Source of the DNA: a virus
Taxonomy: Duplodnaviria > Heunggongvirae > Uroviricota > Caudoviricetes
IMG/VR virus record: IMGVR_UViG_3300009709_000001
Location: 317,336-381,335 of that record
Length of the DNA: 64,000 bases
Strand: one strand, 5' to 3'
How positions within the stretch are numbered: position 1 is the stretch's first letter; every line of letters starts with the position of its first letter. The notes under the pieces are model-generated. The model saw only the letters and a program-made list of their open reading frames with translations, ran no database searches and was not told the DNA's origin. Shown here piece by piece: positions 4,312-62,000 of the stretch. The translations under genes were made by a program, and so were the position numbers.

Positions 4312-4731
4312 TTAGTGCAAGATAGGCGGTTTGCCTAGCCGAGTGGATTCTGGAAAAAGGTTATCAACCGCGTCTTTCAAATCCAAATCATCAAGTGTAA
4401 TATCGCTCATTTCATCAAGAAAGTCTTTCTCGATATTCTCCAGCATTTCAGTCTGCTGGCGTTCTTGGCGAAGAATCATTCGAAGAATATTCTTGGCATG
4501 ATCTTCGGTTAAATCCTGAACGAAGTAAGGAACTGCATCCGCGGTGATCCAAATCTCATCTCTATATTCCTTGCCATCGCCATGGGCGATATAGGTCTTA
4601 TGTTCTTGCCATTCGACCGTATATTCTTCGGTTTTGAGATTCTTTCGAATATCGATGAACCATTTATCTTCGGCGATCAATGGAGCAACGAATGCCTTCA
4701 TTTCTTCATAGACAAGGAATGTCTTTTTCAT
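4312..4731 (-). CDS. hypothetical protein (139 aa)
   Basis: ORF track; 1-nt overlap with upstream gene. Confidence 0.55.
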   Translation of the reverse strand: MKKTFLVYEEMKAFVAPLIAEDKWFIDIRKNLKTEEYTVEWQEHKTYIAHGDGKEYRDEIWITADAVPYFVQDLTEDHAKNILRMILRQERQQTEMLENIEKDFLDEMSDITLDDLDLKDAVDNLFPESTRLGKPPILH

Positions 4732-9741: not shown

Positions 9742-10076
9742 CTATTATTTATCTGCAAATTATTGTTCCAGTCATAAGAGCCCGATCGAGAAATACCTTT
9801 TCGAAGCTCGAGTGTTCTTTCTTTACTAAGGAAAACTATTCTATCGGATTTTAACCTATTAAATTCCTCGTCAGTTATTAGAGGAACATTATGGCCCCAG
9901 CGAAGCTTTACATATAGGTCGAATCCCTCAGCAGATTCAATAATCCATCCATTGGACCAATCATCAAGTTTTAGATGGCCACGGCCTGTTAACTCTGCAC
10001 TAACACAGACGAGCATACCCGAATAGTCTTCTTCGAGAAGACTAATCTGAGAACTCTTTAGGTAATAGTAGCTCAT
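9738..10076 (-). CDS. hypothetical protein (112 aa)
   Basis: ORF track; 4-nt overlaps on both sides. Confidence 0.55.
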   Translation of the reverse strand: MSYYYLKSSQISLLEEDYSGMLVCVSAELTGRGHLKLDDWSNGWIIESAEGFDLYVKLRWGHNVPLITDEEFNRLKSDRIVFLSKERTLELRKGISRSGSYDWNNNLQINNR

Positions 10077-12355: not shown

Positions 12356-12687
12356 CAGTGAAAGCCGAGATATTTCTCAACTAACTCATTAATGTCTCTT
12401 TCGAGTTTTTCGGTATTGATGAATACCTTAATATCTCGCATCTTCTTGAATGTTTCTTCCATCACTTCCCAGTTCGCATCTTTGTTAACTGGAATTGGAT
12501 GGGTCAATTCGCTACCGCTAAGTTCAACAACATTACCATCATAATACTGCACCAAAATGTGTTCGATGTATTTTGCTGGAATTTCTTTAGCATCTACTTC
12601 TTTCACAATCCGGTCAAAGACTGATGGTTTAGCTATTCTGCTAATAGCCTTGTCGAGATTAAAGCTCGTTGTCCTTTTCGATGGCAT
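12352..12687 (-). CDS. hypothetical protein (111 aa)
   Basis: ORF track; 1-nt overlap with upstream GIY-YIG gene. Confidence 0.55.
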   Translation of the reverse strand: MPSKRTTSFNLDKAISRIAKPSVFDRIVKEVDAKEIPAKYIEHILVQYYDGNVVELSGSELTHPIPVNKDANWEVMEETFKKMRDIKVFINTEKLERDINELVEKYLGFHC

Positions 12688-13223
12688 TAAATAATCTCCT
12701 TATTTTTCTTGGCATTTTTATTGCCAATTTTTGCTAGAGATAATTTCTTTCTATGCTCATCGGACATATTCTTGGTCGCTAACGACAATTTGTCTTTTTG
12801 GGCTTGAGACATAGGGGGCCTGGATTTACCGATTAAACTATTAGAAATATTCTTTTTAGTCTCCTCGGATCTTATAGCACCGAGATGTCTTTGAGAAATT
12901 TTTTCCTTCGATTCTCTAGTATGCTTATATCCGGATGTTCCTTCGACGCCGTTGGTAAAATTCCAAAGTGTTCCTGTTTCTAGATCACGACGACCAAAAA
13001 TTGATATTAAACATTCTTCGAGAAAGAATGAATGTTCTTCGTCCAGTGCATTTATAATTTCGATATTGACGGAAAATCCCGAATCTATAATCTTTTGTTT
13101 TCTAGATTCGACATTTTTATTTTTATCGACTTTAAATCTTCTACCTGTCCCCTTACCGACATAGAATGGCTCATTATTTCTTGTCGGATCTCTAAGAATA
13201 TAGGTAAAGAATTTCTTTGCCAT
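12687..13223 (-). CDS. GIY-YIG homing endonuclease (178 aa)
   Basis: FFTYILRDPTRNNEPFYVGKGTGRR; four NUMOD3-like repeats (HTRESKEKIS, RSEETKKNIS, MSQAQKDKLS, MSDEHRKKLS); AT-rich. Confidence 0.8.
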   Translation of the reverse strand: MAKKFFTYILRDPTRNNEPFYVGKGTGRRFKVDKNKNVESRKQKIIDSGFSVNIEIINALDEEHSFFLEECLISIFGRRDLETGTLWNFTNGVEGTSGYKHTRESKEKISQRHLGAIRSEETKKNISNSLIGKSRPPMSQAQKDKLSLATKNMSDEHRKKLSLAKIGNKNAKKNKEII

Positions 13224-13255
13224 GGTTATCTCCCGTTTACCATATATTTATATGG

Positions 13256-13284
13256 AAAACATGGTTGAATAACAACCATGTTTT
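13256..13284 (-). terminator. hairpin terminator (12-bp stem)
   Basis: aaaacatggttg-aataa-caaccatgtttt, 4 nt after the stop of 13288..14055; A/T tracts form the stem ends, so it could act in both directions. Confidence 0.6.
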
Positions 13285-13287
13285 GGG

Positions 13288-14055
13288 TCAGGCTTTCGCT
13301 GCGCGTTCAGCATCTCTCTTGAGCTTGGCCGCAACCTTAGCATCAAGAGTAGCTTCGGCCTTTTGTACCTTAGCTTCGGCAGCTTTACGTTGATCGCGTT
13401 CACGACGCTTTTGCTTCTGCTCTTCAAGCTTCTGCGCCTTGATTTCTTCCGGCAATGCTGGACGACCACGACCCGGAATAAGTTCCGGATCCAAAGCATA
13501 CGCTTCTTCCCTTAGGGCATCGGCTTTGGCTTCAAGAGCCTGTGCTTCGGTAATGATCTTCTTTGCTCTTGCAACCGGATCAGTCATCAAGCGTGCTGCT
13601 TCTTCGGCGGCCGCAGCCTTTTCAGCCGGAGTACGAGTATCTTCCACTTTAGGTGGAAGAGTCTCGCCACGTTGCTGCGCCATGTACTGATCAACCTTCT
13701 TATCGATTGTTGCATTGATAAGGGCTAGAGGTACTGACTGTCCTGGAAGCGGAACCATTGTTACATTAGCTACCGGCTCCTTACGCAGGAATCCACGTTG
13801 GTGAAGCGAAGTAAGGCAGTTCGTGCCATCCGGGAATGTTCTACGATTTAGAACTTCATAGAAGTTATTCGTTTCTGCAGCTTCTTTCGAATTTAGTGTT
13901 TGAATGACAAAGTCATGGTAACTGTCAGGTAATCTTTCTGTCTCAACGATAAGGCAATGCGAATCGTCGGTTGGAAGAGTTCTGAACACTACAGCTACAC
14001 GTACTCCGGTGTTTACAAGCATCCCGGAGTGCTTTTTGAGGCCTTCAATTGCCAT
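13288..14055 (-). CDS. hypothetical protein (255 aa) with Ala/Lys/Glu-rich coiled-coil tail
   Basis: ORF track; globular N-terminal ~120 aa, then a long charged helical region. Confidence 0.6.
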   Translation of the reverse strand: MAIEGLKKHSGMLVNTGVRVAVVFRTLPTDDSHCLIVETERLPDSYHDFVIQTLNSKEAAETNNFYEVLNRRTFPDGTNCLTSLHQRGFLRKEPVANVTMVPLPGQSVPLALINATIDKKVDQYMAQQRGETLPPKVEDTRTPAEKAAAAEEAARLMTDPVARAKKIITEAQALEAKADALREEAYALDPELIPGRGRPALPEEIKAQKLEEQKQKRRERDQRKAAEAKVQKAEATLDAKVAAKLKRDAERAAKA

Positions 14056-20418: not shown

Positions 20419-21405
20419 ATGGTAAATGTATTCTATAAGGAATTTCTAAAGATGAAGACACACAAATGCGAAAATATGACTTGCCAGAATAAATCCGAAA
20501 AGGATAAGTACGGCAATTATAAAAGATACTGCTCGGATGAATGCAAAAAGGTATCGAGATTATTAAAATTCAAAGAAACATATCAACATAAAGATATGGG
20601 TGCAATATTACAAAAACGAAAAGATACATTATTGTCTAAGTATGGTGTCGAGAACGCAGCATGTATATCTGAGGTCAAAGAAAAACTGCGTATAACCACT
20701 ACTAATACCGCGCAAATCCGCACAATAAAAACTAAAGAGACAAACTTAGCACGTTACGGCGTTGAGAGTACAAATTCCCTTGAGTCTGTTCAAGAGAAGA
20801 AAAAGCAAACCTTACTTGAAAGGTACGGCGTAGATCATCAACTTAAAATACCAGGAGTAGCTGCCGAAGTTTCGAAGAAGAATTCGGAAAATGCTAAGGA
20901 GCGACTAGTAAAGTCGAAGAAGACCAATCTTGAAAGATATGGATGTGAAAATCCATCTGCAAACGAAGATATCAAACTCAAAAGAACTGCAACTATGATT
21001 GAACGGTTCGGTGTAGAGAATGCATCGCAGAATGCTAAGGTTCAGTCGAAAAAAGTCAGGGCCGGCTTTAAGACTAAAAAATATACTTTCCCGTCCGGAA
21101 GAATAGACCATGTCCAAGGATATGAACCTTTGGCACTCAGTCAACTTTTACAGGAGGGATATCAAGAAAATGACATTATTACGCTTGATGAATTGATGCC
21201 GGAACTATGGTATCATGAATCGGATGGATCTAAGCGCAGATATTTCCCAGATATTTATATCCCGAAAGAAAATCTATTAATCGAAGTTAAATCCGAATAT
21301 ACTTATCGCGGATTTATTGGTTGGCTAATAACCAACCAATTAAAAGAGCAATGTGCCAGAGATGCTGGATTTAATTATCGACTAATGATAATGGTAAAGA
21401 AATAA
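20419..21405 (+). CDS. repeat-rich PD-(D/E)xK-like homing endonuclease candidate (328 aa)
   Basis: Five ~35-aa modules (KYGVENAAC, RYGVESTNS, RYGVDHQLK, RYGCENPSA, RFGVENASQ); C-terminal YFPDIYIPKENLLIEVKSEYT (D...ExK); AT-rich, antisense to the gene array; alternative start at 20452. Confidence 0.55.
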   Translation: MVNVFYKEFLKMKTHKCENMTCQNKSEKDKYGNYKRYCSDECKKVSRLLKFKETYQHKDMGAILQKRKDTLLSKYGVENAACISEVKEKLRITTTNTAQIRTIKTKETNLARYGVESTNSLESVQEKKKQTLLERYGVDHQLKIPGVAAEVSKKNSENAKERLVKSKKTNLERYGCENPSANEDIKLKRTATMIERFGVENASQNAKVQSKKVRAGFKTKKYTFPSGRIDHVQGYEPLALSQLLQEGYQENDIITLDELMPELWYHESDGSKRRYFPDIYIPKENLLIEVKSEYTYRGFIGWLITNQLKEQCARDAGFNYRLMIMVKK

Positions 21406-24128: not shown

Positions 24129-24881
24129 ATGCAAGAATTTAAACCAACATGGTTATACATAAAGAAACACAATATCACTGGTTTACAATATTTCGGTAAA
24201 ACAAATAGATATCATCCCGAGAAATATATAGGGTCTGGAAAATACTGGCTAGCGCATTTAAGGGTGCATGGAAAAGATATATCAACAACATGGTGTGAAC
24301 TATTCTTCGACCAGCAAACATTGGTAGAATATGCGCTTAAATTTTCAAAAGAAAATAATATAGCCGAATCAAGTGAATGGGCCAATCTTAAGTTTGAAAA
24401 CGGTCTTGATGGAGGTCACAGTGGCGTGGCAAGGAGCGATGAGACAAAGGAAAAATTATCTAAGAAAAATAGAGGAAAACGACATACAAAGGAAACCAAA
24501 AATAAAATTTCAGATTCCAATAAAGGTAAACATAACATGGTAAGACCTGCAGATGTCGGAGCCAAAATTTCGAAAGCACTGACCGGTAAAAAACGAGGTC
24601 CAATGCCAGATGAAACAAAAAGAAAAATTGGTGATGCAAATAAAGGAAAACCTTCATCAAAGAAGGGTATACCAATGCCAGATGAAACAAAAAGAAAAAT
24701 TGGTGATGCAAATAAAGGAAAACCTTCATCAAAGAAGGGTATACCTAGGTCAGCTATTGATAAAGATAAAATCAGAAAAGGCCAAGAAAATGTACCCGAA
24801 ATAACTTGCCCACACTGTCATATTTCAAATAAACCCGGATGTATGAAAAGATGGCACTTTGATAATTGTAAAAAGAAATAA
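24129..24881 (+). CDS. GIY-YIG-type (Seg-like) homing endonuclease (250 aa)
   Basis: WLYIKKHNITGLQYFGKTN; NUMOD3-like repeats (RSDETKEKLS, HTKETKNKIS, PMPDETKRKIG x2); C-terminal CPHC...KRWHFDNC zinc finger; AGGAGA RBS. Confidence 0.75.
   Translation: MQEFKPTWLYIKKHNITGLQYFGKTNRYHPEKYIGSGKYWLAHLRVHGKDISTTWCELFFDQQTLVEYALKFSKENNIAESSEWANLKFENGLDGGHSGVARSDETKEKLSKKNRGKRHTKETKNKISDSNKGKHNMVRPADVGAKISKALTGKKRGPMPDETKRKIGDANKGKPSSKKGIPMPDETKRKIGDANKGKPSSKKGIPRSAIDKDKIRKGQENVPEITCPHCHISNKPGCMKRWHFDNCKKK
24600..24744. repeat. perfect 72-bp tandem duplication (2 copies) inside the endonuclease gene
   Basis: caatgccagatgaaacaaaaagaaaaattggtgatgcaaataaaggaaaaccttcatcaaagaagggtatac at 24601-24672 and 24673-24744; duplicates 24 aa PMPDETKRKIGDANKGKPSSKKGI. 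Confidence 0.95.
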
Positions 24882-42721: not shown

Positions 42722-42804
42722 TTCAATGTCTCCTTTATAGTAGTATTTATCTGATCGGAATGAAAAACACTCCGGTTGAAATAAATACTAAACTGGGAGA
42801 AACT

Positions 42805-43041
42805 ATGAAGTTATACGAATTGGCTGAAGGTTATTGGAAAAATATCGACATTGCTCGACAGGAAAGACCTGCTCCGCCATCTGTGTTAAACAAGCCTAAA
42901 AGATTTCATGTTCTTATCAATGGTAAGGTTTGGAAGAAAAATGGAGAACCTGTAGAATTTACTTCACAGGGATCAGCTCAACGTGCAGCCGATACTATTC
43001 GTACACGTCGTAACATTACCACTCAGGTTGTTCCGGCTTAA
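42805..43041 (+). CDS. hypothetical basic protein (78 aa)
   Basis: ORF 42715..43041 trimmed to MKLYELAEGYW (GGAGA 5 nt upstream of ATG 42805). Confidence 0.5.
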   Translation: MKLYELAEGYWKNIDIARQERPAPPSVLNKPKRFHVLINGKVWKKNGEPVEFTSQGSAQRAADTIRTRRNITTQVVPA

Positions 43042-45976: not shown

Positions 45977-46247
45977 TAGCGAAATGTTCCCTCATTGCCT
46001 TGTACTGTTCCGGATGTGAACGCCAGTACATGGTATAGGCCTTATGTCCGGCATTGTAGTATCTATCGAAAATACGGCCACGAACTCTTTCGCTGCGAAC
46101 TTTGTGACCAATATTACCAGGACACTGATGTGTTCTATGCTCGAGAAGCTTGTCCCGAACTGTTCGATTGCATCCAATTCTGTTCTTAAAAGGAACGTGA
46201 CTTGTAGTGCCGATTTTGGCTGCTGTATGTGCGTTTACCGAAATCAT
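45969..46247 (-). CDS. hypothetical basic protein (92 aa)
   Basis: ORF track. Confidence 0.5.
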   Translation of the reverse strand: MISVNAHTAAKIGTTSHVPFKNRIGCNRTVRDKLLEHRTHQCPGNIGHKVRSERVRGRIFDRYYNAGHKAYTMYWRSHPEQYKAMREHFAND

Positions 46248-46882
46248 TTGTAACCCTTTCTTCCGTCCTTAAAGACTTCTGTTTCAAAACTCCAGCGTTT
46301 CATGGCTTCAAGGTTTGCTTCCGAATCAGCAGTGAAATCACCAGTACCATCAAATTCTTCGAGTGCTACGTTTCTGCATACTTCCATAAACCATTGGTTT
46401 ACCAGATGATCAGCAGATGGGCCTACATATCCTTCAGACTTTAGCTTTTCAACAAAAGCATCGTTCCAGTCTAATTCAAAACTACCTTCGAGTGATGTAG
46501 ACTTACCGAAGTCCATATGTACCACCGTAACCCACGGCTCTCCCTTAAGTGTAGCACATTTTTTAGAATATTCTGTATCCCCAATTGAGCCTTCACGAAA
46601 GTCAAGTTCCGCCTTTGCTAAGGCACGAAGTTTATCGTCCTTAATCAAATCTAACAATCCATGTTCGTATTCTGACCTTGTGATCTTGGCATACTTCAGC
46701 CTGAGGTCTAACATTCTCTGATTGAAGTCTTCCGATGACATTTCATCTTGGCGAATTTGGAGTAATTTTTCTTCTCTCTCAAATCCAGTAAGCTCGTATT
46801 CAGCTTTAGCAGTCTCTCTTGTCTTTCCGGCTAGGCCCCAACTATAGGGCCACCAGGAAAAAGGAATTAATCGTTTAGACAT
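46244..46882 (-). CDS. hypothetical protein (212 aa)
   Basis: ORF track. Confidence 0.6.
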   Translation of the reverse strand: MSKRLIPFSWWPYSWGLAGKTRETAKAEYELTGFEREEKLLQIRQDEMSSEDFNQRMLDLRLKYAKITRSEYEHGLLDLIKDDKLRALAKAELDFREGSIGDTEYSKKCATLKGEPWVTVVHMDFGKSTSLEGSFELDWNDAFVEKLKSEGYVGPSADHLVNQWFMEVCRNVALEEFDGTGDFTADSEANLEAMKRWSFETEVFKDGRKGYK

Positions 46883-46923
46883 TATTTCAGCTCCCAGAAA
46901 CTTATGCGTTGATAAATATATTT

Positions 46924-47592
46924 ATGATCAATATTCATTTTTATAAAACATTTTTAGGTAACAAATACTCGAAATGGTATTTGTCTATTATTGTTGCTGC
47001 ACAATCGAAAAATCGTAAAAAATCCGAAGATTGCTATTACGAGCGTCATCATATTATACCCAAATCTATAAATCCTGAGATTTCGAACTTAAAATTAAAT
47101 CCCTGGAATGGAGTATTACTAACCGCGAAAGAGCATTTCATTTGTCATCTTCTTCTTACAAAAATGGCTATAGGAAAAGATAAGAATAAGATGATTTATG
47201 CATTATGGAATCTACGTAATCAGAAAACTAAATCTCAGGACCAGAGATTTACCTCAAATCTATACAACGTATACAAGAAACAGATGCAAGAAGCATTATC
47301 TGTAGATCGAAAAGGTAAATCTCTGGAAGAACGATACGGGATTACTCGTGCATCGGAGATTAAAGCATCCTACCGCACAAGAATCCCTCGTGGGAAAGTT
47401 TCCAATGAAGAAAAGGGTAAACTTTCTGAAAATATGAAAACTCTTCATCAAACCCGGCCTTGGAAAAGATTTATGCAAACCAACGGTGTTCTTCCAAAAA
47501 ATACCTGCCCGCATTGTAATAAAACAATGGATGTCGGTAATTATGGAAGATATCACGGGGACAAATGTAAATTACGCGAGATTAGCAAATAG
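46924..47592 (+). CDS. HNH homing endonuclease (222 aa)
   Basis: RHHIIPKSINPEISNLKLNPWNGVLLTAKEHFICHLLL; C-terminal CPHC...YHGDKC zinc finger; first ATG is 46924 (track start 46909 is TTG); 3' end overlaps the QueE 3' end by 21 nt. Confidence 0.8.
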   Translation: MINIHFYKTFLGNKYSKWYLSIIVAAQSKNRKKSEDCYYERHHIIPKSINPEISNLKLNPWNGVLLTAKEHFICHLLLTKMAIGKDKNKMIYALWNLRNQKTKSQDQRFTSNLYNVYKKQMQEALSVDRKGKSLEERYGITRASEIKASYRTRIPRGKVSNEEKGKLSENMKTLHQTRPWKRFMQTNGVLPKNTCPHCNKTMDVGNYGRYHGDKCKLREISK

Positions 47593-48453
47593 ATGCATTT
47601 GCATTTGCATTCTGTAACCGTGCTCCATACAATATCTACCCACGTATTCGTGATTTTCTTGTATCTTCTGCATATTTAATAATCCCGGTTCGAAGAAATT
47701 AATAACTTCATCAACAGTTGAGCGCTCATCCATTGTGATATTGCCTTTTTCGTTGTGTAGAATTTTAATCTTCTGTGGAAGGCTGTTATACACATTCATC
47801 GGGCTAAGATATACTTCCTTAGTAGGATTATTTCTTTTCCACTCATGTGCCCATTCCGGAATTTGATTGTATGGGCTATCTGTTTCGGCACTAACGACAA
47901 ACTTCAAGCAATCTGCTCTTTCCAAAATTTGTTTGGTAGGAGAAAGATACTTAGTAGCCACACCATTCTTTTCAGCACATTTCGGGCTGCAAACGAGTGT
48001 AACACCTTCAGGAATAGGAAGATTTACAGTACCATTGCTTTCGATTTGTACTGCTCTGAAGTTAGGAACTTGTCTTTCTAGGAATGCTGTAAGGTTTGAT
48101 TGTAGTGTGGGTTCACCACCTGTAATAACCATAACAATGTTCGGGAAACTATATGCCTTCTTATCTGGATGTGCCCAAATAGGTGCTACACCACCTTTGT
48201 CTTCCCAATATTTATAGATCGTGTCACCTACCTTCTTTTCCAGTTCTTCATAAGTCATCCAATCTCCATCATCGAAGAATGTATCACAGAAAGAACAAGC
48301 TAGGTTACATTTTGTCAATCTAATGAATAGTGCAGGAGAACCGGCGTATGGACCCTCGCCTTGAAGTGTAAAGAACATACTTGTAACAAATAAACTATTC
48401 TCTGGTGCATCTTTGAAAAATTTCTGGCCAATAATTTGGTTAGTTCCGAACAT
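47572..48453 (-). CDS. queE: 7-carboxy-7-deazaguanine synthase QueE-like radical SAM enzyme (293 aa)
   Basis: TLQGEGPYAG followed by CNLACSFCDT (CxxxCxxC). Confidence 0.8.
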   Translation of the reverse strand: MFGTNQIIGQKFFKDAPENSLFVTSMFFTLQGEGPYAGSPALFIRLTKCNLACSFCDTFFDDGDWMTYEELEKKVGDTIYKYWEDKGGVAPIWAHPDKKAYSFPNIVMVITGGEPTLQSNLTAFLERQVPNFRAVQIESNGTVNLPIPEGVTLVCSPKCAEKNGVATKYLSPTKQILERADCLKFVVSAETDSPYNQIPEWAHEWKRNNPTKEVYLSPMNVYNSLPQKIKILHNEKGNITMDERSTVDEVINFFEPGLLNMQKIQENHEYVGRYCMEHGYRMQMQMHLFANLA

Positions 48454-48985
48454 CTATTAATTCCTTCATTTCGTTTAGTGATAGAAATAACTTTTCACAG
48501 CTAAAACCATCTTTCTTATATTTGCTATTTTCTAAACACCAGCTTCTTATTGTTGTGTGATAAACACCGTAGAATTTGGCAGCGTGTTCTAGGGATGGAA
48601 ATTTTCCGTCTAGTGTGGTTACCAACATTTTCCATCCTTTTGCATCATCTCTGTCAATTTTGCCGAGAGAACACTCAACTTCTGGAACAACATATTCTCT
48701 AGAAAGGTAATTTATTGCACTTTGTAGAAGAGAAATATCATCCTTGAATAACCCGAGTGCGGTGTTGCAGTCAGTGCATAGTAGACCTCTGATTTTTCCA
48801 GATACATGATTATGATCAACTGCTAGATCTCTTCCGCAATAGTCGACTTGCTGGCAGATGCAACAGACACCATTTTGATCGGATTTTATTGCTTCATATT
48901 GATCGTAGTTTATTCCAAACTTCAAAAGAAGCCCATTTTTCTTTCTTCTTTTTTTAGATCTTTCCGGTGTATTAATTATTCCCAT
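48440..48985 (-). CDS. Endonuclease VII-type (HNH-like) homing endonuclease candidate (181 aa)
   Basis: CCICQ...LAVDHNHVSGKIRGLLCTDCNTALG; C-terminal HTH-like tail; AT-rich. Confidence 0.75.
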   Translation of the reverse strand: MGIINTPERSKKRRKKNGLLLKFGINYDQYEAIKSDQNGVCCICQQVDYCGRDLAVDHNHVSGKIRGLLCTDCNTALGLFKDDISLLQSAINYLSREYVVPEVECSLGKIDRDDAKGWKMLVTTLDGKFPSLEHAAKFYGVYHTTIRSWCLENSKYKKDGFSCEKLFLSLNEMKELIDVRN

Positions 48986-48991
48986 AAAAAT

Positions 48992-49018
48992 CTCCTTGTT
49001 TCTTATTTATACAAGGAG
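48992..49018 (-). promoter_or_regulatory. hairpin sequestering the Shine-Dalgarno of the EndoVII-type gene
   Basis: mRNA CTCCTTG-tataaataagaaa-CAAGGAG-attttt-ATG; the 3' arm contains the AAGGAG RBS. Confidence 0.55.
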
Positions 49019-49023
49019 CTGGT

Positions 49024-49049
49024 AAACACTATAGAAATCTATAGTGTTT
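49024..49049 (-). terminator. 11-bp hairpin overlapping the stop of 49048..49629
   Basis: aaacactatag-aaat-ctatagtgttt; T tract lies within the stem end. Confidence 0.5.
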
Positions 49050-49629
49050 ATTCATCGGTCCCTTTTAACTTTTCAATAATTTTAGAGGATTCCAGCATGA
49101 AAGTCAAGTCATCTGCTGTCAGGGCGCCTTTCTCCTTCGCAAACCGAATTACATCTTCAAAGACTTGATCTCGAATCTTACATTTCAGAGCGTGACTAAT
49201 ACCGAGTTTATTTTCGACACTAAAATTCAGCATCTTTTCAAATTGTCGGGATGCTTCATTGACATCTACTTCGGGCGCCCATTCGACTGATCCATCCTTA
49301 TTCAGACGAACAAGTTCTTTACCTGCGGCAGAATAGATTGTCAACAATGTCTTATCAGTTGCTGAGCTGCTGAATACATATGAAGAAGCTGGCGGAGACG
49401 CCGGCATTGTAAACCAACTCGACGAAACTCCTACGCCACCAGTAAGAATACCACTTGTGAACATTCCGCTGCTACTACCGGTAGTAGTGATCGAGCCCAT
49501 ATTAATTCCCGATGATCCTACTGCACCGACATTAGTCATTGGTGTTCCACTTGCATTACCTGTTGGTGCTGGTGGTACTACATTATTCAACGGAGTCTCT
49601 TGTCTTTTCTTAAAATATTTTTCAAACAT
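49048..49629 (-). CDS. hypothetical protein (193 aa) with Gly/Ser/Thr-rich N-terminal half
   Basis: ORF track. Confidence 0.55.
   Translation of the reverse strand: MFEKYFKKRQETPLNNVVPPAPTGNASGTPMTNVGAVGSSGINMGSITTTGSSSGMFTSGILTGGVGVSSSWFTMPASPPASSYVFSSSATDKTLLTIYSAAGKELVRLNKDGSVEWAPEVDVNEASRQFEKMLNFSVENKLGISHALKCKIRDQVFEDVIRFAKEKGALTADDLTFMLESSKIIEKLKGTDE
49079..49107 (-). promoter_or_regulatory. internal sigma70-type promoter TTGACT-17-TAAAAT upstream of the EndoVII-type gene
   Basis: Minus strand gacTTGACTttcatgctggaatcctcTAAAATtattg, inside the 3' end of 49048..49629. Confidence 0.5.
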
Positions 49630-49913: not shown

Positions 49914-50188
49914 TTTGAAAACCTTATTTTGAAAACTAATGCATCTTCAGGATTTTCAAAGCCCACGAAGACTATTACATTTCCGTGATTGCTGAGCACT
50001 TTCACATCTGCTGACCCCGACGTATTATCGTGGAGCCAGTAGAGCAATTCTAAATACATTTCCTGCTGATACGGAAACTTGATTATAGTTCTGAATTTTT
50101 CGTCGAAGTTAACCACTAATGGTTCCGGCTCCAGACTTACTGTCGGTTGCTTCCGGAACATATTCCAAAGTTGCGCCATTTTCCCCAT
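49910..50188 (-). CDS. EEDA-helix small protein family member (92 aa)
   Basis: C-terminus VFVGFENPEDALVFKIRFSK; start uncertain (overlaps the QueD-like 3' end). Confidence 0.55.
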   Translation of the reverse strand: MGKMAQLWNMFRKQPTVSLEPEPLVVNFDEKFRTIIKFPYQQEMYLELLYWLHDNTSGSADVKVLSNHGNVIVFVGFENPEDALVFKIRFSK

Positions 50189-50495
50189 CTTCGCTAACCT
50201 CTACGGAAATTTTACGATTTGGATAGGTCTTGCTGATGTAGTCAATTAAGTCTTCAGCAAGCATTTCGCAACTCTTGAAATCTACCTGCAATGTTGCTTC
50301 GGAATACAGAGCTTCGAGTTCTCTCTTAAATAGGATGAACTCGATATCCCTGTCATTGTGAAATACTTCCACTGTAACCCTGAAGTGGAAAATATGTCTG
50401 TGTGGATGTTTTAGAAATTCTACACCTTCTGGTGCATCGGGATACCTATGAATCCCTTCTTTCTGAAATGTTACGAAAATTGTCCGTGAAATCAT
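50109..50495 (-). CDS. queD: QueD/6-pyruvoyl-tetrahydropterin synthase-like protein (128 aa)
   Basis: TFQKEGIHRYPDAPEGVEFLKHPHRHIFHFRVTVEV aligns by eye with the E. coli QueD N-terminus ([30 protein letters not shown], from memory). Confidence 0.55.
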   Translation of the reverse strand: MISRTIFVTFQKEGIHRYPDAPEGVEFLKHPHRHIFHFRVTVEVFHNDRDIEFILFKRELEALYSEATLQVDFKSCEMLAEDLIDYISKTYPNRKISVEVSEDGENGATLEYVPEATDSKSGAGTISG

Positions 50496-51592: not shown

Positions 51593-52783
51593 TTAGTATT
51601 TTTCGCGGCCGACGTGCTTTCTATAATCTAGTCCGTTTCGTGCCCACTGTGCGCCGTTACCCTTTTCGCCACCCTCAAGGATATCGATGGTACGGTCAAT
51701 TGTTCCATTCTGCCAATCGCTGACTGCACCAGTTGTAAACTTTGCAGGATTGTTCAGCATTGCGGTTAGCTTTGCTGCGGCATCATCTAAGCTCCACGGA
51801 ATATACAAGTTATTCGCATTATTTGCGAACACTTCCGGGAAACTACGATAAGCTGGGAACAAGGTCAGTGTTCCAAATGTGTCGGCTTCGCTAACAGTGT
51901 TACTTACCCAATCTTGAAGGGCACAGTTGAATAAAACGACACTGTCTGCGACAATTTCGTAATAATCGTTCTTCTTCAGACCGGTATAGACCTTGAAATT
52001 AGCAGTTCCGCTAGATTCCAGGTATTTCGCAAACTCGATGTTTTGCGGATTGTTGCTCTTCAATTCAGGATGTCCAGTCACTACCGCAAATTCCACATCA
52101 GGGTGTGTCTTGAACATTTTCTGTGCGAGCTGCATATAGAAGTCGGGTTGCTTCTCATCATCCCAACGAGCTGCAAACACGACACGTTGTTCACGCGAGG
52201 TAATTGGCTTGATGTACTCAACACGTTCAAGCACTTCTTCTTTGCCAAACGGAAGACCAGTAACATAGATAGGTGCCTTGAATCCTGCGATACGCAGATT
52301 AGCAACCATTTCTTCACTTGCCACAAGGATGCCCGATACAAATTCGTCGATCATCAACTCATAGTTACGCATCCAATGACCCATTCCTTCGCGGTTAACG
52401 AAATCATCGGGATCAATGGATTGTGCAAGACAACGAACATAAACCTTCGGACGATACTTCTTAGGCACCTGGTCCATGATGTACGGTAAACATTCAATGC
52501 CTGGAGTAAACATATCTTCGTAGAAGATAACGTCATTACTTGTGACTTTACCTTCCTTCATCAGCTTGATCAGATTTGCAGTCTGCATCATGCTGTAATA
52601 TGTTCGACCGTGTGCATCAAGTACACTACCGGTAACAATGTTCTTGTCGGCAGTTAATTCTGCACCTTTGACAATCTCGTAGTCGATGCCACGAGCTTGA
52701 AATACACGTTCATTCCAGTCTTGGAGTTGCAGTGTGTATCGAGCTTCGTATGCTTCCAAGCCCATATAGAACAGTTTTTTCAT
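51593..52783 (-). CDS. GT-B-like glycosyltransferase candidate (396 aa)
   Basis: Trimmed to MKKLFYMGLEAY (ATGA overlap with upstream stop); C-terminal half RVVFAARWDDEKQPDFY ... VSEADTFGTLTLFP resembles a GT-B Rossmann domain; size similar to T4 alpha-glucosyltransferase; tentative. Confidence 0.4.
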   Translation of the reverse strand: MKKLFYMGLEAYEARYTLQLQDWNERVFQARGIDYEIVKGAELTADKNIVTGSVLDAHGRTYYSMMQTANLIKLMKEGKVTSNDVIFYEDMFTPGIECLPYIMDQVPKKYRPKVYVRCLAQSIDPDDFVNREGMGHWMRNYELMIDEFVSGILVASEEMVANLRIAGFKAPIYVTGLPFGKEEVLERVEYIKPITSREQRVVFAARWDDEKQPDFYMQLAQKMFKTHPDVEFAVVTGHPELKSNNPQNIEFAKYLESSGTANFKVYTGLKKNDYYEIVADSVVLFNCALQDWVSNTVSEADTFGTLTLFPAYRSFPEVFANNANNLYIPWSLDDAAAKLTAMLNNPAKFTTGAVSDWQNGTIDRTIDILEGGEKGNGAQWARNGLDYRKHVGREKY

Positions 52784-53151
52784 AGGTCTTCCTTGTTGAT
52801 TCCCCATTTTACTTTAAGTGTATGTATATCGTCAAAGGGGCCAGTCATTGGCTGCACTCCGAGAAGTTCATCGGCAATAATGTTAGGCATAATTCGATTA
52901 ATCATTGGAATTCTTATACCCTTAGGCTTTGGAGGGGCCTTAAGTTTTTCGATAATCTTTTCAGCCTCAATTTCCTCTGTTGTCATACCCGCAAGACGCA
53001 ATTCTTCTGCAGCCTCTGCATCAATCTTTTCGGCAAAAATCCTGGCTTGTTCTTCCAGCATATACTTGACGATATCATTATTACTACTGGTAATCGAATC
53101 TATTAATTCTTTCTTGGATTCGTTCCAGTTTTCGAATAATTTCTTTGTCAT
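52780..53151 (-). CDS. 123-aa protein carrying a T4 gp23-type capsid motif
   Basis: INRIMPNIIADELLGVQPMTGP versus T4 gp23 VRRAIPNLIAFDICGVQPMNSP (from memory). Confidence 0.5.
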   Translation of the reverse strand: MTKKLFENWNESKKELIDSITSSNNDIVKYMLEEQARIFAEKIDAEAAEELRLAGMTTEEIEAEKIIEKLKAPPKPKGIRIPMINRIMPNIIADELLGVQPMTGPFDDIHTLKVKWGINKEDL

Positions 53152-61151: not shown

Positions 61152-61402
61152 TAGCCGAGACCTCCAGCCTTGTATAGTTCTTCAAGTTCGTCCCAATCTT
61201 CACGGGCGTCATTCATTCGACCCTTTTGAACGATCTTGATTAGCTTATTCAACTGTGCTGGTTTGACTTCTAGTTCCTCGGCGATTGCCTTCACTGTTTC
61301 ATTGAGACCTTGCTTCAGGTCTTCGCATTCCTGAAGAACTGATACACCATCTTGAACGAGTTGTTTCAGACGTGTGATATTTTCTTGGCTAAGTTTCGCC
61401 AT
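61151..61402 (-). CDS. hypothetical protein (83 aa)
   Basis: ORF track; 1-nt overlap with PolB. Confidence 0.55.
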
Positions 61403-62000
61403 TTTTATTTTTCTCCTGCTCTAATTTTCTTTTAGCCCATCGCTCTTTCATCGATGCACTCTGTTTCATTTTTGCTTCAGGCGTCTGTGGTTGTCCCTTA
61501 TTATAAGGCACTCTACCAGACATATTCTTACTCATTGATTCTTTTGCGGATTCTGTGTGTTTGCGACCCAACATCGGGTGCTGCAATTTAGATCTTGCTT
61601 CGGTTGCTTTTTCATAAACCCAGTCGGGTTGTCTTTTGCCGAAAAATGAGCTATTTTCACCAGAGTGTTGCTGTCTTAATTTTTCTCTAATTTCCGGTGT
61701 TTTAGCATCAGACATTTTCTGTTTGGTTTCAGCAGTATGTTTTCTTCCCGAGGCGCCTTCACCACCGTCGGTTAAATTTCTAAGAATACCTGTTCCGATA
61801 TCTTTTCTGCCATACCAACGAATATATCTTCGTTCTAGTGCAAATGCACCTATTTCTGTAAGATTAGACTCGAGTATAATAATCCGAAATTTATCCGGTG
61901 GGACATTTACAGTATGTCGACCGAGAAATCTTTTACCTGATCCTTTACCGATATAATAAGGAGTATTATCTACTCTAAGATAAGCGTAAACATAGAACAT
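61389..62000 (-). CDS. GIY-YIG homing endonuclease (203 aa)
   Basis: [24 protein letters not shown]; NUMOD3-like repeats ([20 protein letters not shown]). Confidence 0.8.

Follow-up and report, generated by a model that had tools for sequence, protein, structure and literature searches.

The window analyzed here, a 64,000-nucleotide stretch of DNA from an uncultivated freshwater jumbo phage clade, carries an endonuclease gene in front of a gene of 7-deazaguanine metabolism. Read along the minus strand, a resident gene of 193 codons (49048-49629, with its stop codon TAA at 49050-49048) is followed by a free-standing, homing-type endonuclease open reading frame of 181 codons (48440..48985, ATG at 48985-48983) and then by a QueE-like radical-SAM gene (47572..48453; phrog_2076, E 5e-54), which is presumed to be the target and host gene of the endonuclease and whose start overlaps the endonuclease frame by 14 nt. 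The clade has a polymerase only about 40% identical to those of RaK2, Atu_ph07, and Phosso, and we consider it to have no close cultured relative, because a megablast search of the 46-52 kb region against GenBank phages returned no matches.

The initial annotation named the product a member of the Endonuclease_7 family, and a Pfam match bears this out: a ββα-Me (Endonuclease_7) domain occupies the N-terminal part of the protein (aa 22-95; PF02945, E 7e-22), which also matches PHROG endonuclease VII families. Solved structures are matched over the core only (Hpy99I at 1e-10, T4 Endo VII at 5e-6). The remaining C-terminal domain of about 80 aa is conserved, and its fold is left unassigned because Pfam gave nothing beyond a faint match to HTH_psq (E 0.09-0.2). 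An exact-word scan of IMG/VR with the endonuclease gave nothing, and homologues were instead recovered by a large protein search and a profile-based scan, 17 of them full length. We rejected the reading of the gene as an orthologue of the T4 gp49 Endo VII Holliday-junction resolvase: similarity to gp49 is confined to residues 19-100 (33% identity, E 8e-7), Hpy99I scores better, the C-terminal 80 aa are unrelated, and the gene is missing from relatives. Judged by its domains, the product is best described as a free-standing homing-type endonuclease with a ββα-Me core, an additional C-terminal domain, and a presumed capacity for site cleavage.

Insertion at the 5' end of QueE

Every full-length homologue for which the gene context was read overlaps a QueE-like gene, while the upstream neighbors vary. 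The endonuclease is missing at the QueE site in all 80 of the QueE-containing syntenic relatives found in IMG/VR. In four endonuclease-free relatives (L003, L004, L019, and L055) the upstream gene lies directly against QueE; in such genomes it ends in ...KLKG(x)*, and QueE, beginning MFGTNE..., starts 2-8 nt later. In the window, the end of the 193-aa frame is fused in frame to a QueE 5' coding remnant, GGGACCGATGAA, which encodes 'GTDE' and is closed by the stop TAA (49048..49062). This remnant reads as the left edge of an inserted cassette. Two other lineages (L085 and L096) keep an intact version at the same place, ATGTTCGGAAC..GAATAA, encoding MFGTNE*. A second QueE copy, GGAACTAACCAA, lies at 48447-48436, so that the cassette is flanked by copies of the QueE 5' end.

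The ribosome-binding region of QueE (48454..48466) lies inside the endonuclease frame. Its AAGGA (48466-48462), 8 nt before the QueE ATG at 48453, is written within the conserved C-terminal '..NEMKE..' codons of the endonuclease; the same AAGGA(A/G)...ATG arrangement is found at the 3' end of every homologue and, in the endonuclease-free L004, directly upstream of QueE. Identity profiles in 25-nt and 100-nt windows further delimit a block of about 775 bp (48335..49110) that is 97-100% identical to L082-L084, with flanks of just 50-80% identity. It runs from the 3' end of the upstream gene through the leader and the endonuclease into some 40 codons of QueE, and its profile is that of an apparently recent transferred or co-converted tract.

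The gene thus combines the traits of a homing endonuclease, namely a nuclease fold, sporadic presence at one locus, constant association with QueE, and co-converted flanks, and it would presumably cleave QueE alleles that lack it. Together with its homologues it identifies a QueE-associated family of Endo VII-type homing endonucleases, which could explain mosaicism in phage 7-deazaguanine DNA-modification clusters. We also offer, tentatively, the possibility that the unit represents an undescribed style of intron-less homing cassette, one that lands in the first codons of its target and repairs QueE by supplying a stop of its own for the orphaned remnant, a hairpin that insulates against ribosomes opening the downstream Shine-Dalgarno (SD) hairpin, and a duplicate QueE ribosome-binding site (RBS) and 5' coding end embedded in the 'NEMKE' = ..AAGGA.. 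codons. If this were true, endonuclease and QueE would be mutually dependent and hard to separate.

A probable resident promoter and two hairpins

Upstream of the insertion, within the 3' end of the 193-aa frame, lies the sigma70-like motif TTGACT-17-TAAAAT (49079..49107, minus strand; TTGACT at 49107-49102, TAAAAT at 49084-49079), which scores 10/12 at 17-nt spacing. Such sites occur at chance frequency (21 in 10 kb, with 25.5 expected). The motif is conserved in 9 homologues, with the endonuclease present or absent, in the conserved codons DLT(F/Y)(M/L)L..(S/A)KI of the resident gene. The third-codon positions that fall in the hexamers are invariant (G 9/9, T 9/9, A 9/9), whereas of about 40 third positions on either side just 2 are. 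Given this synonymous-site conservation, we predict that it is probably a real promoter. It is present in the endonuclease-free relatives L003, L004, L055, and L040 and, as CTGACA, in L019, and endonuclease cassettes with different upstream neighbors (MazG or small open reading frames) lack it. It is probably a resident early or middle promoter reading into QueE, and this distribution places it outside the endonuclease's own control elements. RNA begun there would hold both of the hairpins described below and, by the folding models, would be the translationally closed form.

Hairpin 1 (49023..49050, minus strand) consists of a 12-bp stem, TAAACACTATAG/ATTT/CTATAGTGTTTA, with an ATTT loop and the stop codon of the upstream gene at its 5' base. 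Its predicted energy of -13.5 kcal/mol (z = -7.9) was equaled by none of 200 shuffled sequences, and by this modeling it is clearly more than chance. The initial annotation had placed an 11-bp hairpin over this stop codon, which holds with one more base pair, and had described it as terminator-like, a reading that we rejected. Only 3 of the 12 stem pairs are G-C, the stem is followed by CCAGCUCC, and a terminator scan did not report it. Counterparts are found in a subset of lineages (L085/86, z -2.8; L096, z -2.4; weakly in L094) and in none of the others, and no U-run follows any of them. Hairpin 1 is not a canonical Rho-independent terminator, since it is without a U-tract and the QueE gene downstream requires read-through. 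Most likely, although our confidence here is low, it is an accessory spacer or insulator that stops ribosomes terminating at the TAA from melting the next hairpin, or else an RNA-stability element.

Hairpin 2 (48992..49018, minus strand) joins an anti-SD arm, CUCCUUGU (49018-49011), with ACAAGGAG (48999-48992) in 8 bp around an 11-nt loop. Its 3' arm contains the SD sequence of the endonuclease, AAGGAG at 48997-48992, separated by a 6-nt spacer from the ATG at 48985-48983 (48983..48997 in all). The predicted energy is -10.3 kcal/mol (z = -2.4), and 5 of 200 shuffles fold as well; the minimum-energy fold of the 116-nt leader contains both hairpins (z = -4.5, 0/200 shuffles). Rfam returned nothing above threshold; the chance matches were to PyrR (27.8 bits, cutoff 54) and to a miRNA family.

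A predicted late promoter box within the SD hairpin

The loop and 5' arm of hairpin 2 contain a T4-type late promoter box, TATAAATA (49004..49011, minus strand), occupying positions -13 to -6 relative to a predicted late start near 48998; the position and geometry are those of known late boxes (PMC2988020). The initial annotation overlooked this box, at 49011-49004, so that its list of elements lacked the one that would open expression. The predicted start lies 6 nt past the box and 3' of the anti-SD arm (49018-49011), giving a very short late leader that would begin about 1 nt ahead of the SD.

The box is widely kept among homologues. The motif (T/C)ATAAATA occurs in 18 of 20 leaders of homologous endonucleases that are 54-98% identical in protein sequence; of the 15 leaders that were aligned, 13 carry TGTATAAATA unchanged and the remaining two have TGCATAAATA, and in 15 of 18 lineages the box stands 15-21 nt from the ATG. 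Two lineages, L101 and L104, have lost the motif. In divergent relatives, too, ATAAATA is kept in front of the same genes, one of which encodes a virion structural protein, and ATAAATAT ranks first among 56 composition-matched words for proximity to gene starts (22/51 versus a mean of 7%). Exact TATAAATA is not enriched across the window (5 sites versus 2.75 expected); the positional and phylogenetic tests of the late motif were informative, whereas the exact-word count in the window was not.

A tblastn search with T4 gp55, which recognizes TATAAATA, found no match within the 64-kb window, and the same query against GenBank phages matched T4-like phages and cyanophages only, a result uninformative about jumbo relatives. 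With no gp55 homologue detectable in the window, the proposed late machinery is deduced from what is known of relatives and from conservation of the motif. An ATAAATA late motif and a gp55-like sigma factor have been reported in RaK2-like jumbo phages (PMC5259590), and NATAAATA is found in T4-like cyanophages (PMC2984593).

The two predicted transcripts differ sharply in how they present the SD. In the window, the computed probability that it is unpaired is 0.02 on read-through RNA versus 0.69 on late RNA, and RNA starting at 48999 forms no stable fold (-0.7 kcal/mol). With shuffled upstream sequence the mean accessibility is 0.46, and none of 100 shuffles is as low as the read-through RNA; among random 14-mers drawn from the locus, just 0.3% achieve equally good pairing with the SD segment. 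Hairpin 2 is therefore modestly above chance when judged by energy alone, while its modeled occlusion of the SD lies beyond all 100 shuffled controls. The earlier suggestion of an SD-sequestering hairpin that gates translation is in this respect supported computationally: with its SD sequestered, translation of the endonuclease is predicted to be gated.

Across 18 lineages, which are not statistically independent in this or the other conservation counts, mean SD accessibility is 0.24 on read-through RNA, 0.67 on late RNA, and 0.47 when the upstream sequence is shuffled; 16 of the lineages show this direction. Differing loop lengths broke the register of the 3' arm in the MAFFT leader alignment, and for this reason pairing was assessed by a register-free helix test. 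By that test 12 of 18 lineages have an anti-SD helix that exceeds 95% of random controls in length, even as the arm sequences differ among lineages. The paired arms, G·U pairs included, are CTCCTTGT/ACAAGGAG, TCTGTGTA/TACACAGG, CTATGTA/TACATAG, TTCCTCGC/GTGAGGAG, and TCTTATAC/GTATAGGA. In L094 and L095 the calculation shows no opening of the SD in late RNA, and L177 has almost no anti-SD helix.

We propose, with a probability of roughly 0.75, that these elements form a T4-type timing switch in which a late promoter lies within the SD-sequestering hairpin of a homing endonuclease inserted at the extreme 5' end of QueE. The cassette would consist, in order, of the stop that ends the QueE remnant, an optional hairpin 1, TATAAATA within the SD hairpin, the endonuclease frame, and a replacement QueE RBS and start in the last codons of that frame. 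Early or middle transcripts would start upstream, plausibly at the resident TTGACT-17-TAAAAT, and read through the cassette to express QueE. On this RNA the anti-SD arm would pair with the SD; the endonuclease would go untranslated, whereas QueE, having a separate RBS, would still be made. At the late stage of infection, a polymerase equipped with a gp55-type late sigma factor would start near 48998 and yield RNA without the anti-SD arm; the SD of that RNA would therefore be free and the endonuclease made. By computation the locus has two features of such a switch: the SD is paired on RNA started upstream, and the predicted late RNA begins beyond the 5' strand of the hairpin. The sequence anatomy, predicted folds, conservation and covariation across lineages, insertion polymorphism, and transfer block are established by the analyses above, and from them we infer promoter activity and its timing, the transcript 5' ends, and translational repression in vivo.

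Alternative readings were weighed against this timing switch. It is unlikely, in our judgment, that TGTATAAATA and its complementary arms serve chiefly as an operator bound by protein or as a site acting at the DNA level, with the RNA hairpin secondary, whether as a target for autorepression by the DNA-binding domain of the endonuclease or as a cruciform or recognition element for the nuclease. I-TevI does bind an operator that overlaps its late promoter (PMC2988022), the motif is conserved more strictly than the rest of the leader, and hairpin 1 is a perfect DNA palindrome beside an Endo VII-family gene. However, the arms covary with G·U pairs that are compatible only with RNA of this strand, ATAAATA also precedes unrelated genes in relatives, the palindromes are imperfect in other lineages, and by inspection the promoter region has no evident similarity to the QueE insertion site. 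An operator of this kind could in any case coexist with the late-promoter switch instead of replacing it.

The initial annotation had drawn the sigma70-type promoter (49107-49079), the terminator-like hairpin, and the SD hairpin together as a self-contained cassette that restrains a toxic endonuclease and moves as a unit, which we now regard as quite improbable. All three elements do lie on the minus strand where they had been placed, the SD hairpin is real, and the near-identical L082-84 block reaches to about -125, promoter hexamers included, so that the leader does travel with the gene. The promoter, however, belongs to the resident gene: it lies in resident codons, recurs in five relatives that have no endonuclease, and is missing where the cassette sits behind MazG or small open reading frames. 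Hairpin 1 has no U-tract, is missing in most lineages, and was passed over by the terminator scan. Such a cassette would furthermore have no 'on' state, because RNA from its promoter contains the closed SD hairpin, and it leaves the invariant TATAAATA unexplained. That the hairpins and TATAAATA are fortuitous in an AT-rich intergenic spacer, with the endonuclease simply co-translated from operon mRNA, is highly unlikely: the lack of overall enrichment of TATAAATA in the window, the chance frequency of sigma70-like sites, and the z of just -2.4 for hairpin 2 would fit, but the motif in 18/20 leaders at 54-98% protein identity, the conserved spacing, the covarying arms, the 0/100 shuffles that occlude the SD as strongly, and the z of -7.9 for hairpin 1 speak against it.

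Limitation of toxicity, the rationale first put forward for gating the gene, is not specific: in this phage group, genes that are driven by ATAAATA but encode no endonuclease frequently have a promoter in a hairpin as well, and in T4 loss of the I-TevI hairpin caused no drop in viability attributable to toxicity of the endonuclease (PMC2988022). We likewise rejected SD occlusion as an endonuclease-specific trait; other endonuclease-like genes in the window are mostly open, and many non-endonuclease genes driven by ATAAATA are occluded. A second endonuclease gene with an occluded RBS had been reported in the window, for which we found no strong match, only the gene at 13223 being moderately occluded (0.27).

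Relation to known phage switches

The mechanism we propose is already known, and by analogy the locus appears to be a clear further example of it. According to review accounts, T4 I-TevI (and also I-TevII and I-TevIII) has an RBS-sequestering hairpin and a late promoter placed so that late RNAs lose the inhibitory strand (Gott et al. 1988, reviewed in PMC2988022 and PMC3014915). As with I-TevI, the present endonuclease gene sits in the early/middle unit of a metabolic gene with its SD paired on read-through RNA, and the TATAAATA late promoter lies directly upstream of or inside the hairpin, giving a late RNA that is translatable (here by prediction). Unlike the intron-encoded, GIY-YIG I-TevI, this gene is free-standing, intron-less, and of the Endonuclease_7/ββα-Me type; its host is a distant uncultivated jumbo phage instead of T4, and an autorepression operator is hypothetical here.

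The closest match is the arrangement of mobE in Aeromonas phage Aeh1 and segB in T4, free-standing HNH or GIY-YIG homing endonucleases described in published accounts as having RBS-sequestering hairpins (Gibb & Edgell 2007, 2009, cited in PMC2988022; PMC2330249); for segB the T4-type device is a prediction (PMC2988022, PMC3014915, PMC2330249). Shared with the present locus are a free-standing endonuclease within or beside a gene of nucleotide metabolism, a late promoter (here a predicted one), a hairpin over the RBS, and a downstream host gene that depends on read-through. As those accounts portray it, nrdA is divided in two by mobE, whose mRNA undergoes processing at an RNase E-like site, whereas the present cassette lies within the first codons of QueE and, unlike mobE, supplies a duplicate QueE RBS and 5' end. 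In the same accounts segB has no nearby promoter, unlike the endonuclease described here.

In T4, the late genes e (lysozyme), soc, and 49 (Endo VII) are kept silent on early transcripts by hairpins in their leaders (PMC3014915). Their regulatory logic is identical to that proposed here, and gene 49 is one of the classic cases, its product gp49 being homologous to the catalytic core of our endonuclease. Unlike gp49, a core resolvase, the present endonuclease is sporadic and behaves as a mobile element, and the similarity is limited to the ββα-Me core. To judge from the sequences, the T4 device of a late promoter in an RBS hairpin is conserved far outside the Tevenvirinae, on a mobile endonuclease and on ordinary late genes alike. 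This provides a rule for annotation, whereby NATAAATA bracketed by an anti-SD and an SD marks a gene for late-only translation.

A putative late promoter box within the Shine-Dalgarno hairpin

On reading the minus strand, we found all of the elements listed in the initial annotation ahead of the 181-amino-acid endonuclease ORF (48440-48985, minus strand). A sigma70-like motif, TTGACT-17-TAAAAT (49107-49102 and 49084-49079), lies inside the upstream 193-amino-acid ORF (49048-49629); hairpin 1, TAAACACTATAG-ATTT-CTATAGTGTTTA (49050-49023), begins with the three bases of that ORF's stop codon; hairpin 2 is formed by the complementary arms CUCCUUGU (49018-49011) and ACAAGGAG (48999-48992); and the Shine-Dalgarno sequence (SD), AAGGAG, is 6 nt ahead of ATG 48985. 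In the suggested RNA folding, the 116-nt leader has a minimum-energy structure (-27.6 kcal/mol, z -4.5) that includes both hairpins; hairpin 1 by itself reaches -13.5 kcal/mol (z -7.9) and hairpin 2 by itself -10.3 kcal/mol (z -2.4).

Overlooked in that annotation was a T4-type late box, TATAAATA (49011-49004, minus strand), which lies within the hairpin 2 loop and matches the T4 late consensus. T4 late promoters have an 8-bp box at -13 to -6 followed by an AT-rich segment (PMC2988020), and this geometry, applied to 49011-49004, places the predicted late start at ~48998, 3' of the anti-SD arm and directly 5' of the SD. RNA begun there is practically unstructured (-0.7 kcal/mol). In the pairing calculation, the SD is free with a probability of only 0.02 in the read-through transcript but 0.69 in the late one, and in 100 controls with shuffled upstream sequence it was never as strongly occluded. 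Transcripts from upstream would keep the endonuclease SD paired, and late RNA from ~48998 would free it. In known T4-type cases, a stable structure hides the ribosome-binding site on early or middle read-through RNA, and the late promoter is sited where RNAs begun from it leave out the inhibitory strand (PMC2988022, PMC3014915, PMC2330249). The switch at 48985 is clearly a well-supported further example of this already known device; what is new is the phage clade, the endonuclease VII-type family, and the QueE target.

Exact copies of TATAAATA are not enriched in the window (5 sites versus 2.75 expected), and all five are on the coding strand. The positional evidence for (N)ATAAATA as a promoter in this phage group is stronger than the window count: ATAAATAT is followed by an SD, ATG, and ORF at 22 of 51 occurrences versus a mean of 7%, by far the top of 56 composition-matched 8-mers, and ATAAATA is kept 15-28 nt 5' of the same ~98-amino-acid gene in more than 15 divergent relatives, as well as 5' of the 46244-46882 virion-protein gene of the window and of its homologue in one relative's locus, L055. 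The window has no close relative among GenBank phages; its family-B DNA polymerase shares ~40% identity with the enzymes of Phosso, Atu_ph07, and the RaK2 group, all jumbo myoviruses. In the RaK2-like jumbo phages CBB and GAP32, ATAAATA precedes ~35 structural genes and a sigma factor resembling gp55 is encoded (PMC5259590), and T4-like cyanophages use the late motif NATAAATA (PMC2984593). We infer a similar gp55-type sigma link for the present late box; no gp55 homologue was found in the window, which spans only a fraction of the genome. A separate motif, GATAAATA, often lies 1-5 nt 5' of start codons throughout the window (examples at 9753, 37571, 62679, 42047+, and 28352+) and throughout the relatives' loci L002-L081; it appears to belong to a GGAGATAAATA-ATG ribosome-binding context rather than to a promoter and is therefore confusable with the late box.

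The upstream promoter motif and hairpin 1

The initial annotation regarded the sigma70-like motif as the cassette's own internal promoter. The motif (49107-49079) matches at 10 of 12 positions, and such sites are not above chance in the 10 kb scanned (21 versus 25.5 expected in shuffled sequence). It falls within conserved codons of the resident 193-amino-acid gene, D-L-T-(F/Y)-(M/L)-L-x-(S/A)-(S/A)-K-I, whose third positions inside the hexamers are invariant among nine homologues (G of Leu TTG/CTG, 9/9; Lys AAA, 9/9; a T-ending Ser/Ala codon in 9/9 despite the amino-acid switch), versus only 2 of ~40 flanking third positions. Because of this invariance we regard the motif as a probable promoter, though one that belongs to the resident gene and reads into QueE: it is present in the endonuclease-free relatives L003, L004, L055, and L040 (as a CTGACA form in L019) and is missing from cassettes behind other upstream genes. 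RNA from it, with a 5' end at ~49072, would include both hairpins and so be the closed form for the endonuclease. Neither hairpin occurs between the upstream gene and QueE in the endonuclease-free loci L003, L004, L019, and L055.

Hairpin 1 had been described as terminator-like. The scan that also counted sigma70-like sites did not call it a terminator, because its stem is followed by CCAGCUCC instead of a U-tract. Besides the window, L085/86, L096, and, weakly, L094 have such a structure, and all of these loci, the window's included, retain an MFGTN-type QueE remnant; the remaining lineages lack hairpin 1, and no U-run follows its counterparts in the lineages examined. No promoter specific to QueE is evident between the endonuclease and QueE, so efficient termination at hairpin 1 would be detrimental. 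Tentatively, hairpin 1, with TAA at its 5' base, may hold the ribosome that terminates there clear of hairpin 2, the 5' arm of which starts 32 nt further on; alternatively, it could be an RNA-stability element. Thus, the earlier observation stands, but its interpretation does so only in part, since the wrong promoter was credited, the hairpin is no terminator, and the late promoter was missed.

A mobile cassette at QueE

The 181-amino-acid protein carries an Endonuclease_7 (ββα-Me) domain at residues 22-95 and matches PHROG endonuclease VII families. Among solved structures, Hpy99I, a sequence-specific restriction enzyme, matches best (E 1e-10), with T4 Endo VII behind (E 5e-6); both alignments are confined to the catalytic core, and the conserved C-terminal ~80 residues gave no fold assignment beyond a faint HTH_psq match. 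Orthology to the T4 Endo VII resolvase was ruled out, the catalytic core alone being shared. Judged by its sequence, the protein is a homing-type enzyme.

None of 80 QueE-containing relatives fetched from IMG/VR has the endonuclease upstream of QueE, and in the syntenic loci L003, L004, L019, and L055 the homologue of the 193-amino-acid gene stops 2-8 nt before the QueE ATG. Full-length endonuclease homologues number 17, at 54-98% identity; all those whose context was read lie directly 5' of a QueE-like gene, with a 14-23-nt overlap (14 nt in the window, where the downstream gene matches phrog_2076), and the neighbour on the other side varies (193-amino-acid gene, MazG, small ORFs). In most lineages a second copy of the QueE 5' end persists just upstream of the cassette: ATGTTCGGAAC..GAATAA (MFGTNE*) in L085 and L096, and MSKIKIAELFYSIQGVH* in L097, agreeing with its own downstream QueE. 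The window's remnant is joined in frame to the 193-amino-acid ORF (...KLKG-TDE*, 49062-49048), and the "upstream gene's stop codon" is therefore actually the cassette edge. In the comparison with L082-L084, identity is 97-100% between positions of about -125 and +650, counted from the ATG (~49110-48335 in the window), and drops sharply to 50-80% on both sides. This block contains the leader, the endonuclease, and ~40 QueE codons, and we read the pattern as the signature of recent lateral transfer with co-conversion. In L092, L094, and L095, the upstream remnant is of the MFGTN(E/D) type and the downstream QueE starts with MK(E/K)(Y/F)K(F/Y)SEIFG; from this mismatch, the cassette seems to have imported a different QueE 5' end into these genomes.

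Also new is that the 3' coding sequence of the cassette itself includes a second QueE ribosome-binding site and 5' end. The conserved C-terminal endonuclease motif LNEMKE is encoded by ..AATGAAATGAAGGAA... (48454-48470, minus strand), a segment that doubles as the QueE SD, AAGGA, 8 nt ahead of ATG 48453; such coding and regulatory dual use is also seen at the 3' ends of all endonuclease homologues.

Between QueE and the virion-protein gene, the window, L082, and L004 carry a phrog_655 HNH gene (46909-47592, plus strand, in the window) that is missing in L083 and L084 (identity 0-30% at +1400 to +2000 from the endonuclease ATG). It is another mobile insertion next to QueE, independent of the first; L019 and L076 have different endonuclease-like ORFs at its position. 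In the cluster upstream, a 128-amino-acid phrog_17812 protein (50109-50495, minus strand) seems QueD/PTPS-like, judging by its sequence and by the PTPS genes that lie close to QueE in relatives. Also on the minus strand are a 404-amino-acid glycosyltransferase-like protein (51593-52807; sub-threshold GT1 match) and a 123-amino-acid ORF (52780-53151; precomputed Pfam Gp23 match in L001).

Conservation and generality of the proposed switch

We read 20 endonuclease leaders and aligned 15, in which TGTATAAATA is unchanged in 13 and replaced by TGCATAAATA in the remaining 2. The distance from box end to ATG is 15-21 nt in 15 of 18 box-bearing lineages; the late motif has been lost from another two, L101 and L104. 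The flanking arms vary in sequence across lineages and keep their pairing, G·U pairs included (CTCCTTGT/ACAAGGAG, TCTGTGTA/TACACAGG, CTATGTA/TACATAG, CCTTGTA/TACAAGG, TTCCTCGC/GTGAGGAG), and G·U pairs function only in RNA of the leader's own strand. In L102 and L103 the anti-SD is just 3' of the box, yet it still spans the predicted start. The helix is longer than 95% of random same-locus 5' segments in 12 of the 18 lineages (a register-free test), and SD accessibility changes in the expected direction in 16 (exceptions, L094 and L095), counts that are not independent trials, the lineages being mutually related. Averaged over the 18, accessibility is 0.24 for the read-through and 0.67 for the late transcript, compared with 0.47 for shuffled controls. 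These comparisons indicate that the leader moves with the gene and that its regulatory logic is kept.

At least six free-standing homing-endonuclease-like genes lie within the 64 kb (12687-13223, 20419-21405, 24129-24881, 46909-47592, 48440-48985, and 61389-62000), and four of the window's seven ATAAATA+SD+ATG sites stand ahead of one of this kind. Strong SD occlusion among them is confined to 48440-48985, and no strong case fits the claim of a second endonuclease gene with an occluded ribosome-binding site. Nor is the limiting of endonuclease toxicity a specific rationale for the gating, since non-endonuclease ATAAATA-driven genes of relatives show the same trend (0.34 read-through versus 0.62 late, several at 0.00-0.01); the late-box/SD-hairpin switch is therefore a general late-gene tool of the clade, not a special nuclease safeguard. 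T4 genes e, soc, and 49 likewise use the device as a late-gene tool (PMC3014915).

Three of the homing-endonuclease-like genes are on the window's minority plus strand, and ATAAATA occurs 24-35 nt 5' of the 24129 and 20452 starts. The 12687-13223 gene (minus strand; 178 amino acids, phrog_314, NUMOD3) has the same order of hairpin, late box, and endonuclease as at 48985: within 13223-13292, a 12-bp hairpin, AAAACATGGTTG/CAACCATGTTTT, is followed by TATAAATA (13252-13245), GGGAG, and ATG, with only moderate occlusion (0.27 read-through versus 0.49 late). At 42781-42808 (plus strand), ATAAATA lies 17 nt ahead of the ATG of a 78-amino-acid ORF starting at ~42805, whose SD is modelled as fully occluded in the read-through transcript (0.00) and open in the late one (0.96), which would make it a further instance of the switch. 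In L074 (~4640-4700; also L059, ~4673), CCTCCGTAGTTTT-ATAAATA-CTGT-AAAACTACGGAGG precedes a 274-amino-acid ORF (MYYLMIKEIEQTGMKYLCK...) directly 5' of QueE, with an SD accessibility that rises from 0.06 in read-through to 0.71 in late RNA; this ORF is unrelated to the endonuclease, has no Pfam match, and shares the late-box-in-SD-hairpin design at QueE, the target gene of both.
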